From the NCBI GenBank assembly GCA_041498975.1, contig JBGQJI010000229.1:1-2734 (forward strand): a stretch of 2,734 nucleotides of DNA, given 5' to 3'. Below, piece after piece: positions 158 through 2,302 of this stretch. Within the stretch, counting starts at the first letter, position 1, and each line of letters starts with the position of its first letter. The DNA comes from Candidatus Methylomirabilis sp. (GTDB taxonomy: Bacteria; Methylomirabilota; Methylomirabilia; Methylomirabilales; Methylomirabilaceae). The notes beneath the pieces are model-generated. The model was not told where the DNA came from. It worked only from the letters and a program-made list of their open reading frames with translations, and made no database searches. The position numbers and the translations under genes are program-made.

Positions 158-394
158 TTACCGGCCCCCCTTGATCTTGGGGACCATGAGGACGGTGTCG
201 CCATGCGCGAGCAGCTGAGTTCGTTTTACTGCCTGGCCGTTCACCCGCACTTCCAGACCCCCGTTAACTCCCAGCTCCGCCAGAAGGCTGTCGAGGGTAA
301 AGGGGCTTTCGCGCCGGACCTCCTGAGTGCTCTTGCCAAGCGTCACGATCTTTACGACAACGGGTTCCTGCTCCTGTGTGCTTGCCTGCTTCAT
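158..394 (-). CDS. Ubiquitin-like (beta-grasp, MoaD/ThiS-like) protein with C-terminal GG followed by one extra Arg
   Basis: 78 aa with the MoaD/ThiS-type pattern 'TLDSLLAELG...VRVNG......L..GD.V.MVPKIKGG-R'. ATG start with strong RBS AGGAGG 6 nt upstream. Directly downstream of an E1-family gene. Confidence 0.9.
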   Translation of the reverse strand: MKQASTQEQEPVVVKIVTLGKSTQEVRRESPFTLDSLLAELGVNGGLEVRVNGQAVKRTQLLAHGDTVLMVPKIKGGR

Positions 395-400
395 CGCAAG

Positions 401-406
401 CCTCCT
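401..406 (-). promoter_or_regulatory. Shine-Dalgarno site of the Ubl gene
   Basis: The minus strand reads GGAAAGGAGG-CTTGCG-ATG: AGGAGG with a 6-nt spacer to the start at 394. Confidence 0.85.
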
Positions 407-449
407 TTCCTCTGTTGAGCTATCTGGCCTGTGGCCGAGTCACCTGCCT

Positions 450-1097
450 CTAGGTGGTGAGGAAGGTGAGGGTCTTCTGATCGAAAATGATCTCTCGTTT
501 GCAGGTTTCGCCCATCGCGACGCGCTTCACCTGGCCTGCCACCAGGCTTGCGATCCCCAACCCGGTATAGACGATGGCCTGGGCAGTACATGGAAGCTGC
601 AAGGCCTCGTCGTCCGAATAGAGGGTTTTCTCATAGAACCGAACATGGTCAGGGTCCTGGGGGCGGACCGTGTAGAGCCTTGAGACCTCGGCGCCCATCC
701 TGGCGTCGATATAGGCTGTGACGCCGGCCTTGAACCGAATCGATCGATCCCAGATCCGCCGTCTTGCCTCCATGCTGTCGACGCCAGAGACGACGATCCC
801 CTGGAGCCGCTGGCTCTGGACGCGCTGTGGCCGCGCCACGATGCCAACCCCCGTGAAGCTCTTGATGATCTCGGCCAGGCGTTCAACCTTCGGGTGGCCG
901 ATGTCGTTCAGCCGGTAGAGCTGATTGGGGATATTGTGTTCTTCCACCAGATCATCATCGAAGATGGTGAGGTGCACGCACCCCATCTTCGCAAGCGCAA
1001 GCGCCGTGAAGGAGCCGATCCCTCCGCAGCCGATGAGGGTGATCGGGGCCTCGAGGGCCTCGGCGTCCACCAGATCGGTCTGCCGGGAGAGATCCAT
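450..1097 (-). CDS. ThiF/MoeB/E1-family ubiquitin-like activating enzyme (adenylyltransferase)
   Basis: N-terminal SRQ; nucleotide-binding GCGGIG (aa 23-28); D47-x-D49 followed by N55-IPN-Q59; G-x-x-K70; V106-D107..R112; candidate active-site Cys170 in 'LPCTA' (codon 588-590). RBS AGGAG lies 8 nt upstream. Confidence 0.95.
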   Translation of the reverse strand: MDLSRQTDLVDAEALEAPITLIGCGGIGSFTALALAKMGCVHLTIFDDDLVEEHNIPNQLYRLNDIGHPKVERLAEIIKSFTGVGIVARPQRVQSQRLQGIVVSGVDSMEARRRIWDRSIRFKAGVTAYIDARMGAEVSRLYTVRPQDPDHVRFYEKTLYSDDEALQLPCTAQAIVYTGLGIASLVAGQVKRVAMGETCKREIIFDQKTLTFLTT

Positions 1098-1102
1098 GGT
1101 CT

Positions 1103-2302
1103 TTACTCCTGCCGTGCAGGTTTGAGGCCGGCGGGCGCGAGCGACGCGGGCTGTCCCGTCTCGGGTATTTCTCGCCAGTGCTCGATGGAGACATGCCAGT
1201 CCTTCGGATTGATCGTCTTCAGGAAGTCCACAAGCACCTCAGAGGCGGCGGTGAGTTGACATTCACCGATCAACTTGGCTACTCCTTGCCGGACGTTTCC
1301 CAGGCAAGGCGTTCCGTTCCAGATGTGCGGGTGGTCATAGTACCCGTGTCTGCTCGTCAGGTTCTCAATCGTGATCTCTCCGCTGTACTGCAGATCGATC
1401 TGAAACGTTCCCAAGGAGTACAGCTTGCCGGCGTGTTGCGCCCCGATAGGCCGAGTCAAGATCCGCAGTCCCGCCGGCCCTGCCGTGACGTCGGCGACAT
1501 CGGGGAGATCCGACAGCCGATCCAGCTCGCGGGCCACATCGGCCTCGTCTTCGGCCAGCTCGCCCTTCAGTTGCCGGAGGCGTCGCCGGCACGCCTGCAG
1601 GTGACGGGTCTCGGCGGTCAGCCGGAGAGAGGCGGCTTCAAGCGCCTCTTCGGTTGAACGGACCTCACTCTCCAGAAAACTGATCTCATCCCCGATCTCT
1701 CTTCCCCGCCCCTCCTCGAACTGGCTTGTGGCTAGGGCTCTTCGCTTGTGGCGCCAGCTCGCCTCTTGAATTCCGGTCGTTCGCTGCAGGCCAGCGAGAA
1801 TGGACTCTATGCGGTCGGGGTGCAGGCCGCCTTGCGCAGCCAGGTCTGCGCTCATGAGATGGAGGGCGCGGTCGAGGAGCAGTCTGAGGAGCAGGGGGGC
1901 GAGTTCTTCCTGCTGACCGGCGACATCGAACAGGATGAAGATATTCCTGTGGTGCAGGTAAGCCAGCGATTTCCCCTCATCGTCGCGCAAGAGCGTTCCA
2001 TTTCCAAGTCGCCCCGGGGGCACCAATGCCTGTCTGGCCCCCTCGCGCAACGGATGGCCGAAGGCGATGGGCAACCCGATCATCCGAGTTTCACCTAACA
2101 GTGACATCCATGGGACCCGTCTGGGCAGGGCAAAGAGGTGAAGGTGGAACCCGGGGTCTTCCCTCGGTTTTGAGTAGAGCCGAAATGGCCGATGGAGGTG
2201 CAGAGCGATTCTCAGCGCGGATTCATAGTCCTTGATCACCGGCTCGAGGTGAGGAAACTCACACGATTGTCGTCTATCGGACATGTGATTCTTTTCGGAC
2301 AA
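1103..2302 (-). CDS. Putative prokaryotic E2 (UBC-like) conjugating enzyme with central coiled coil and uncharacterised N-terminal region
   Basis: Longest ORF, co-oriented with and coupled to the E1 gene. H324-PHIWNGTP-C333-LG mirrors the UBC signature HPN(I/V)xxxGx(I/V)CL. It is preceded by beta-strand-like segments (LGTFQIDL, ITIENL) and followed by amphipathic helices. A heptad-rich E/R/L/A segment spans about aa 203-263. The start is uncertain: TTG at 2302 or ATG at 2284. Confidence 0.75.
   Translation of the reverse strand: MSEKNHMSDRRQSCEFPHLEPVIKDYESALRIALHLHRPFRLYSKPREDPGFHLHLFALPRRVPWMSLLGETRMIGLPIAFGHPLREGARQALVPPGRLGNGTLLRDDEGKSLAYLHHRNIFILFDVAGQQEELAPLLLRLLLDRALHLMSADLAAQGGLHPDRIESILAGLQRTTGIQEASWRHKRRALATSQFEEGRGREIGDEISFLESEVRSTEEALEAASLRLTAETRHLQACRRRLRQLKGELAEDEADVARELDRLSDLPDVADVTAGPAGLRILTRPIGAQHAGKLYSLGTFQIDLQYSGEITIENLTSRHGYYDHPHIWNGTPCLGNVRQGVAKLIGECQLTAASEVLVDFLKTINPKDWHVSIEHWREIPETGQPASLAPAGLKPARQE
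1106..1110 (-). promoter_or_regulatory. Shine-Dalgarno site of the E1 gene, embedded in the last codons of the upstream gene
   Basis: The minus strand reads AGGAG-TAA-AGACC-ATG. Only 5 nt separate the upstream stop (1103) from the start (1097), consistent with translational coupling. Confidence 0.8.

Follow-up and report, generated by a model that had tools for sequence, protein, structure and literature searches.

The conjugation of ubiquitin-like proteins (Ubls) by bacteria has been shown experimentally only recently, for Cap2 of the cyclic oligonucleotide-based antiphage signaling systems (CBASS), for Bil and for Bub, each of which uses a chemistry of its own. The Bil systems (BilABCD, Type I and II; operon classes 6d and 6C), which act against phages, are composed of a Ubl, an E2 conjugating enzyme, a JAB peptidase and an E1 activating enzyme with no E3 ligase, and their E2 is thought to select the targets directly, according to the available text of the Bil preprint (10.1101/2023.09.26.559546) and of the Bub preprint. 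In this study, we analyzed a stretch of 2,734 bp of DNA (the window), representing the entire contig C229 of a Candidatus Methylomirabilis genome assembly (G000; 84.9% complete, 2.68 Mb, 241 contigs), which carries three genes for an E2-like protein, a minimal E1 and a single-domain Ubl. We consider it probable that the three gene products form a thioester-based Ubl conjugation cascade and that the operon is a JAB-detached variant of an undescribed module consisting of the E2-like protein, a JAB peptidase, the minimal E1 and the single-domain Ubl.

The E2-like protein, the E1 and the Ubl

Positions 158-2302 of the window are occupied by three open reading frames (ORFs), all on the minus strand (Table 1). 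An earlier note made from the letters of this DNA had described them as three co-oriented genes with short gaps and with ribosome-binding sites ahead of the E1 and Ubl genes, and the sequence bears this out: the gaps measure 5 nt (1098-1102, between the E2-like and E1 genes) and 55 nt (395-449, between the E1 and Ubl genes), and the binding sites read AGGAG and AAGGAGG. The E2-like ORF reaches back to a TTG at 2302 (399 aa; stop codon at 1103-1105). The cysteine that the note had given for this UBC-signature protein is present; because the homologues begin at the ATG (33 of them, mostly 388-393 aa long), its number changes from Cys333 to Cys327 in the numbering of the family.

No match to the E2-like protein was found in Pfam, NCBIfam, PHROG or PADLOC (2023 release, whose content of Bil models is unconfirmed), and PADLOC likewise returned none for the Ubl. 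We built a full-length AlphaFold2 model of the protein on 19 homologues and folded its last 194 residues a second time on a set of 31 diverse relatives. The model thus obtained for the C-terminal domain, with a predicted local distance difference test (pLDDT) value of 91.2, runs in the order helix, six strands, a loop with HPH and the cysteine, and two helices. When this domain was searched with Foldseek, 42 of the 47 rows were E2s, with UbcH8 on top (probability 0.98, E 0.024). A VIA-wide structural alignment placed UBE2S first (Z 6.9 over 117 residues), together with UbcH10 and UBE2E1 (115-126 residues), and the globular matches besides the E2s were RWD domains only. In a second look with VIA, UbcH8 reached a Z of 7.3 over 117 residues, and 47 of the 50 rows were E2s, the other three being the RWD domain of Knl1. 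The E2 cores aligned over 111-126 residues at Z values of 6.2-7.3, and whole E2 cores were spanned with uniform scores. A UBC fold in the C-terminal domain, on which the earlier note had staked its proposal beforehand, is thus supported by Foldseek, VIA and the model.

The signature of the protein, HPH(318-320)-IWNGTP-C327-LGN (HPH-x6-C-LGN), lies in the loop after the sheet. His318, Pro319, His320, Pro326, Cys327, Gly329 and Asn330 are invariant in 19/19 close members, and among 31 distant C-terminal modules of 23-40% identity, HPH is still invariant, with Cys327 and Gly329 at least 90% conserved. Judged by the succession of elements along the UBC fold in the model, HPH and Cys327 would take the place of the HPN loop and the catalytic cysteine. 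From the modeled fold, we conclude that the C-terminal domain appears to be UBC-like with a catalytic-looking cysteine, belonging to a family that is absent from the curated models.

This family is large. A phmmer search against 1.84 billion representatives yielded 1,271 matches at E ≤ 0.001, with 299 at E ≤ 1e-10 and 21 at E ≤ 1e-30, the homologues being named only "hypothetical protein" in their sources. Full-length relatives are few, and most matches share only residues ~200-380, comprising the helix and the UBC-like domain. This shared module occurs as stand-alone proteins of ~200 aa or beneath unrelated N-terminal regions of up to ~650 aa. The N-terminal region accordingly differs across the wider family. 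In the close family alignment, Tyr20, His47, Asn114, Asp120 and Gln124 of the N-terminal domain are invariant; it had no Pfam match and no match to an Atlas named cluster, and whole-model fold searches of the E2-like protein were taken up by rows of coiled coils and E2s. It presumably selects targets or binds a partner. The region between the two domains was assigned by DSSP to helices at 128-143, 145-152, 156-240 and 243-258.

The E1 was recognized by the Pfam model ThiF with 74.3 bits (cut-off 28.1; E 1.1e-20). Its residues 1-125 align to E. coli ThiF, including the ATP-site and Mg-binding residues, and Arg5, the GCGGIG motif (Gly23-Gly28), Asp47, Lys70, Asp107 and Cys170 are invariant in all 17 aligned E1s; Cys170 is the residue already singled out in the earlier note. 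The protein contains four cysteines (24, 40, 170 and 199), no CxxC pairs and no extra domain. It stayed under every NCBIfam equivalog cut-off (ThiF PRK08644, 63.2 vs. 159; PRTRC_ThiF, 51.6 vs. 144.75), and the PADLOC models "E1-E2" (Cap2) matched it at 3.2e-11 at best, over the first ~80-140 residues only, which represent the Rossmann part.

The Ubl was identified by the Pfam model ThiS (27.2 bits, cut-off 22.5). It contains the two glycines noted before (codons 164-169), and it ends in PKIKGG-R rather than at the GG, with the final Arg codon at 161-163. An alignment of 17 Ubls showed VP-I-GG to be invariant and Lys73 to be present in 16, with Glu in the phage-like locus L093 (see below). Of the tails, 35 were readable: GG is the end of 7, and the remaining 28 continue for 1-6 residues (GGR 13, GGAR 6, GGC 4, GGLP(A/S)SRR 2, and one each of GGQ, GGLR and GGCA); two further rows were unreadable, one being cut by a contig end and the other miscalled as an ORF. 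In the available text of the Bil preprint (10.1101/2023.09.26.559546), the JAB removes a short non-conserved stretch located behind an invariant Gly in BilA as well. By analogy, variable tails after an invariant GG would be a modifier-like rather than a carrier-like feature, and the invariant Cys170 of the E1 points in the same direction. Because the residue after GG must come off before adenylation, the Ubl of the window needs a peptidase. Together, the Pfam matches to ThiF and ThiS and the fold matches of the C-terminal domain support the three identities proposed before.

Table 1. Features of the window with their coordinates (position 1 is the first nucleotide of the 2,734-bp stretch).
Feature	Position	Strand	Remarks
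E2-like protein gene, 393 aa	1103..2284	-	ATG at 2284 is the start used by homologues
N-terminal alpha/beta domain, aa 1-125	1910..2284	-	AlphaFold2 pLDDT mostly 87-94
Long helical, coiled-coil-like region, aa 128-258	1511..1903	-	DSSP; matches are coiled-coil structures only
UBC/E2-like domain, aa 259-375	1160..1510	-	HPH codons 1325-1333; Cys327 codon 1304-1306
Shine-Dalgarno sequence AGGAG for E1	1106..1110	-	8 nt ahead of ATG; inside 3' end of E2-like gene
ThiF-type E1 gene, 215 aa, single domain	450..1097	-	Cys170 codon 588-590; Pfam ThiF
Shine-Dalgarno sequence AAGGAGG for Ubl	401..407	-	6 nt ahead of ATG
Beta-grasp Ubl gene, 78 aa	158..394	-	Pfam ThiS; stop 158-160
Repeated element of ~200 nt at contig end	2531..2734	.	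flanks the operon, outside it

Several observations weigh against a conjugation cascade. The fold similarity is moderate, with Z values of up to 7.3 compared to the caution line of 8 given for the tool and a best Foldseek E of 0.024. The motif is HPH rather than HPN, with His instead of Asn as the third residue, and the distance from HPH to the cysteine is one residue shorter than in UbcH5. The Pfam models UQ_con and Prok-E2_A to E did not match the protein even at E values of up to 1, nor did a Pfam E2 model match any of 25 distant relatives. When a profile of the 31 modules was run against the PDB sequences, UBE2L3 appeared only at E ~0.9-1.5 among dominant coiled-coil noise, and a profile of the globular domain from 6 sequences gave one irrelevant match and no E2. 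Full adenylation competence of the E1 is not guaranteed, because it lacks the CxxC zinc motifs and carries Asn58 in place of the Arg in the NLQRQ sequence of E. coli ThiF. The neighbors of the operon are housekeeping genes, and no recognized defense or phage gene was found beside it in the clusters scanned. Finally, the E1 and the Ubl do not require an E2 step, because E2-independent conjugation by ThiF-type E1s is known from SAMP, TtuB and Urm1, as far as the available parts of those sources describe it.

The last point leads to an alternative in which the E1 alone activates the Ubl for conjugation or thiocarboxylation, as in archaeal SAMP/UbaA, Thermus TtuB/TtuC and Urm1/Uba4, and the 393-aa protein serves as a non-catalytic adaptor of the UEV or RWD type, as a scaffold or as the main target, with a structural cysteine. 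RWD domains (Knl1, RNF25), which are UBC-like folds without catalysis, indeed score like E2s, the E1 belongs to the minimal ThiF kind found in E2-independent systems, and no link of the E2-like protein to E2 families was found at the sequence level. However, the strict conservation of HPH, Pro326, Cys327, Gly329 and Asn330 in the close members would be unusual for an adaptor, and the distant members retain HPH and, nearly always, Cys327 and Gly329 in the positions of the HPN loop and the catalytic cysteine. We therefore consider an E2-independent system unlikely and continue with the thioester cascade.

Linkage among relatives and the missing JAB peptidase

We collected 92 loci with homologues of the E2-like protein, 89 of which are non-identical, and called the genes of the relatives with a home-made heuristic based on the G+C content of third codon positions; linkage was only counted in the 53 loci where the sequence extends for at least 1700 nt beyond the E2-like gene. 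In 25 of these, the E2-like gene is directly followed by the E1 gene, in 7 a JAB gene stands between the two, and 20 represent a paralogous operon type consisting of the E2-like gene, a JAB gene, an alpha/beta-hydrolase gene and a gene for a protein termed "X268". The one remaining locus shows none of these arrangements (L033). The same E1 is thus encoded in 32/53 loci, and where the sequence extends for at least 2600 nt downstream, 25 of 26 E1 loci also encode the Ubl. The linkage to E1 is kept down to 25-28% identity of the E2-like protein (L059, L060). Because dozens of independent contigs show the three genes in this order, with identities of the large protein down to 25-40%, the order represents more than a chance arrangement, and the co-occurrence of the three genes, by which the earlier note had wanted its proposal to be judged, is borne out by the neighborhood survey. 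Two loci (L031 and L033, the latter with 10 kb of downstream sequence) carry a Ubl gene directly after the E2-like gene, with no E1 detected.

The earlier note had further described the system as standing alone without a JAB peptidase. No JAB gene is present within the 2.7-kb contig of the window. As a property of the system, however, the claim fails, since JAB genes are found in sister, paralogous and phage-like loci; even in its own genome, it holds only locally, for contig C2 carries a JAB homologue that is intact and unlinked. The JABs share the JAMM motif HSH-x7-S-xx-D, and the matches of the operon-type JABs to the Pfam model Prok-JAB are sub-threshold. To place the two situations, 58 E2-like proteins were arranged in a quick maximum-likelihood tree with support values from the SH-like approximate likelihood ratio test (SH-aLRT) and a midpoint root. 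The clade of the window (support 100) contains 17 rows, all without a JAB. Its sister clade (support 94) contains 10 rows, 7 of which carry a JAB gene after the E2-like gene, with the E1 gene in view beyond it in 5; of the other three, two end too early to tell, and in L019 the E1 gene lies 258 nt downstream with no JAB. Both clades together are sister (support 90) to the clade with the hydrolase-containing operons, in which the JAB gene also follows the E2-like gene. Because the JAB-less clade is nested among JAB-bearing ones and phage-like homologues also contain a JAB, the loss of a linked JAB gene is the simplest reading.

The JAB homologue on contig C2 contains the intact HSH-x7-S-xx-D motif, shows 48% identity to the operon-linked JAB of locus L066 and stands alone between a transporter gene and a gene resembling those of Mg-chelatases. 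Among 20 genomes of the genus, 6 contain the JAB and 6 the operon, with both present in 5. One genome has only the JAB (80% complete), one has only the operon (88% complete), and 13 have neither, including eight that are 99-100% complete. This co-occurrence is suggestive only, as the genomes are related and not independent, and it may reflect the shared descent of one subclade. Moreover, the C2 JAB could instead serve Ubl-related clusters found on two other contigs of the genome, C22 and C80; both points speak against linking it to the operon.

The paralogous operons (L028-L047, L076-L092 and others) occur in the Methylomirabilales and code for E2-like proteins with 35-38% identity to that of the window. 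The genes for the E2-like protein, the JAB and the alpha/beta hydrolase come first, X268 follows in one or two copies, and a gene for a 110-aa protein is next. Many genomes contain both operon types together. In G000, the hydrolase-X268 part is located on contig C80 (2263-5667, L097), and no second E2-like gene was found in this genome. Contig C22 (11300-15600, L096) carries a second Ubl-related cluster with all genes on one strand, coding for an AAA+ ATPase (591 aa), an X268 protein (267 aa, no family), a JAB of 282 aa with the HSH-x7-S-xx-D motif (Prok-JAB, 1.9e-5), a ThiF-like E1 of 237 aa and a 90-aa protein ending in GEKG, which has no Pfam match and is 63-67% identical to the 108-aa protein encoded downstream in the paralogous operons, which we assigned to the beta-grasp fold by eye only.

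The best family matches of the Ubl and E1 are to ThiS/MoaD and ThiF/MoeB, which would also fit a sulfur carrier system. In such a system, the E1 and the Ubl would generate a Ubl thiocarboxylate that serves a cofactor, a thionucleoside or a small molecule, the role of the JAB would be confined to unmasking the GG end, and the large protein would act as a sulfurtransferase or a persulfide carrier via Cys327. An unmasking of the GG end by JAB peptidases occurs in the carrier systems CysO/Mec+ and QbsE/QbsD. C-terminal extensions removed by a JAB are also predicted for carrier systems by Iyer et al. (2006; PMC1779556), in the part of that paper at hand. Against this stands that no rhodanese, cysteine desulfurase, or thiamine, molybdopterin or sulfate assimilation gene is adjacent in the loci surveyed, that the operon is restricted to 6/20 genomes of the genus while other ThiF-like matches are present in the same genome (contigs C87 and C22), that the module occurs on phage-like contigs, and that the NCBIfam models for carriers and ThiF scored far under their cut-offs. 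We therefore regard a sulfur carrier as very unlikely and retain the conjugation cascade as the preferred reading.

Chromosomal site, distribution and phage-like relatives

A survey of the phylum detected the E2-like gene in 43 of 251 genomes, nearly all belonging to one order, and many of them contain pairs of paralogues. By family, it was present in 5/19 genomes of f1 plus G000, 11/21 of f2, 14/15 of f3 and 6/6 of f5; these tallies include two unpublished genomes (G034 and G044), which enter into no other result. Close relatives of the genes are nearly all from metagenome-assembled genomes of the Methylomirabilota (NC10).

In the genus, the operon occupies a site with a lipoyl-synthase-like (lipA-like) gene on one side and a UPF0047/PHP/FdhD-like block on the other. 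These names come from the N-terminal sequence for the lipA-like gene, from a Pfam match of the L064 orthologue for UPF0047 and from reading for the PHP/FdhD-like genes. The flanks in a closed genome of the genus (G053) are separated by 224 bp that contain neither the operon nor UPF0047, and in G050 the distance amounts to 389 bp. The site in G054 contains ~9 kb of other cargo, including a gene with a PIN-toxin-like N-terminus (by reading), and in G057 a TPR protein gene is followed by the operon. Because the flanks abut in relatives and other cargo is found in G054, the cassette represents accessory cargo at a variable spot, in line with its presence in only a minority of the genomes of the genus.

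The ~200-nt element at the right end of the window recurs in copies of 89-98% identity on contigs C48, C157, C102, C74 and C64, and over 111 nt the right end is identical to the end of C76, the contig on which the upstream flank gene is located. The repeat was probably the cause of the assembly break. Nucleotides 1-45 of the window resemble short stretches on 8 other contigs (85-94% identity), and scans of the window for Rfam families, tRNAs, promoters and terminators revealed nothing notable. On the downstream side, contig C111 of G000 (1-2451, L095) opens with a copy of the final 138 nt of the Ubl gene (93% identity), which may be a strain variant or a partial duplication. It is followed by a gene of the XRE type with a helix-turn-helix (HTH) domain and by a gene for a PGAP1-like hydrolase (594 aa, four DUF4214 repeats), both inserted, relative to locus L003, ahead of the UPF0047/PHP-like genes of the downstream flank. 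A CapH/CapP-like role of the HTH regulator was rejected, since the partner is the PGAP1-like protein with DUF4214 repeats and not a CapP-type peptidase. Locus L003 itself contains an intergenic element of ~120 nt (7628-7750) with dozens of copies across the contigs of G057 and G000, which are 72-97% identical (mostly 79-88%) and resemble a repeat of the genus of the REP/MITE type (repetitive extragenic palindrome/miniature inverted-repeat transposable element).

We searched IMG/VR with the family alignment, with a single protein and with a degenerate DNA pattern, and obtained two phage-like contigs with the module. The larger one (193 kb; L093:7653-12713) encodes two E2-like paralogues, a JAB (369 aa), an E1 with 52% identity to that of the window and a Ubl-like ORF, all in one direction. 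The paralogues (473 and 458 aa) are full-length and both contain HPH…C-LGN, the first one matching with 99.75% probability over 337 columns in hhalign. The 76-aa ORF ends in RVNG…VPEIRGG-CL and has no Pfam match; it was assigned as a Ubl by alignment with the Ubls of the family. The smaller contig (25 kb, 35% G+C; L103:5232-8774) encodes a 589-aa E2-like protein with HPHISNGEPCLGN, a JAB and a ThiF-type E1 sharing the PCT motif, and a possible Ubl of 78 aa without a Pfam match lies upstream. A tblastn search of the INPHARED GenBank phage records gave no match.

These contigs raise the question of which side the module serves. With the same chemistry, it may be cargo derived from phages or mobile elements that modifies host proteins for takeover, counter-defense or superinfection exclusion, instead of acting in host defense or housekeeping. 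Such an origin would agree with the complete module on the 193-kb contig, where 5 of the 16 neighboring ORFs have PHROG matches, with the second module on the 25-kb contig, with the match of the window's E1 to phrog_15670 (1.6e-26), with the third Atlas neighbor cluster, which is 73% viral, and with the operon being an indel in a variable site that has repeats on its flanks. On the other hand, the neighbor clusters scanned for the clade of the window (9 clusters, by Pfam) contain no phage or integrase gene, the G+C content of the window (0.610) equals that of the genome (0.618), the tree of the clade groups with the lineages of the hosts, and the viral nature of both IMG/VR contigs is putative. 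We assign a low probability to this possibility.

Proposed cascade and comparison with known systems

In the conjugation cascade that we favor, the 78-aa precursor (…PKIKGG-R) would first be trimmed to Gly77, likely by the unlinked JAMM peptidase encoded on contig C2. The 215-aa E1, presumably acting as a homodimer, would then adenylate Gly77, and its Cys170 may accept the Ubl as a thioester. The Ubl would subsequently be handed over to Cys327 in the HPH-x6-C-LGN loop, a transfer predicted from the fold and motif found there. Without an E3, the 393-aa protein may serve as both E2 and substrate selector: its helical region may oligomerize, and its family-variable N-terminal domain may pick the targets. 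The JAB would finally reverse the modification. As for the biological role, a function in phage-host or mobile-element conflict is our leading guess, which we hold with low confidence, because the operon is accessory cargo at a variable site and has relatives on phage-like contigs; a stress-related regulation of proteins would be the alternative.

If confirmed, the system would add an E2-like family outside all curated models that keeps the classical His-Pro-x loop and the cysteine, and the smallest E1 linked to an E2 so far, consisting of 215 aa without a ubiquitin-fold domain (UFD), a zinc site or a separate Cys domain, which raises the question of how an E2 is recruited by a bare ThiF dimer. 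It would also provide natural variants with the deubiquitinase encoded in cis, in trans or on a phage. With a total of ~690 residues, the system is small and suited to in vitro reconstitution, and should the copies on phages prove real, it would become directly testable whether phages themselves conjugate Ubls.

We file the operon with the prokaryotic E1/E2/Ubl(/JAB) conjugation operons, built on an uncurated E2-like family. In the literature covered, we found no description of the family, of a Ubl system in Methylomirabilota, or of a phage module with E1, E2-like protein, JAB and Ubl; such operons may already be listed in the supplements to the Bil and Bub preprints, which lay outside that literature. 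The layout differs from those of Bil, Bub and CBASS Cap2/Cap3 as the available text of two Corbett-lab preprints describes them, in agreement with the earlier note.

The wider module contains the same parts as Bil, and the E2-like protein is likewise proposed to select the targets itself. However, according to the text at hand, BilD is an E1 of several domains (IAD-AAD-CYS) that has a zinc site and carries its cysteine on an inserted domain, whereas the E1 of the window is a single ThiF domain of 215 aa without CxxC motifs. Class 6d E2s lack the classical His according to the part of PMC1779556 available, and the BilB-type E2 is described with a Cys and a downstream His instead of the classical one, while the E2-like family retains HPH; the comparison with BilB was made by description only. 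In addition, the E2-like protein carries an extra N-terminal domain and a helical region of ~130 residues, and the operon of the window contains no JAB.

The Bub systems (6E/DUF6527) are also operons of diverged bacterial E1, E2 and Ubl proteins, and their Type II typically lacks a JAB. As far as the accessible description goes, they employ Ser/Tyr oxyesters with an E1 and E2 devoid of catalytic cysteines and a DUF6527 serine protease, and they contain Ubl-E2, JAB-E1 or E2-E1 fusions. In contrast, both cysteines are invariant here, no DUF6527 match was obtained, and the genes are separate. CBASS Type II (Cap2/Cap3) shares the ThiF-type adenylation domain, the E2-like domain and the JAB, but Cap2 is an E1-E2 fusion conjugating a CD-NTase rather than a Ubl. 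The window encodes the two functions separately and has neither a CD-NTase nor an effector, and no CD-NTase was among the conserved neighbors of the operon. The ThiF/ThiS, MoeB/MoaD and SAMP/TtuB systems are the closest sequence families for E1 and Ubl, from which the operon differs by the linked UBC-like protein with its invariant cysteine and by the tails after GG; it further differs from sulfur carrier and E2-independent systems by the JAB in sister operons, the patchy, accessory distribution and the phage-like carriage.

We tentatively propose, with less than even confidence, that the proteins with the HPH-x6-C-LGN signature represent a large unnamed E2 family, which together with the minimal E1, a JAMM peptidase and a one-domain Ubl would constitute a further class of conjugation systems besides Bil, Bub and CBASS. 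Bacteria and large phages would have this class in common, and in the Methylomirabilales it would have split into at least two paralogous operon types, with that of the window relying on a peptidase encoded elsewhere.

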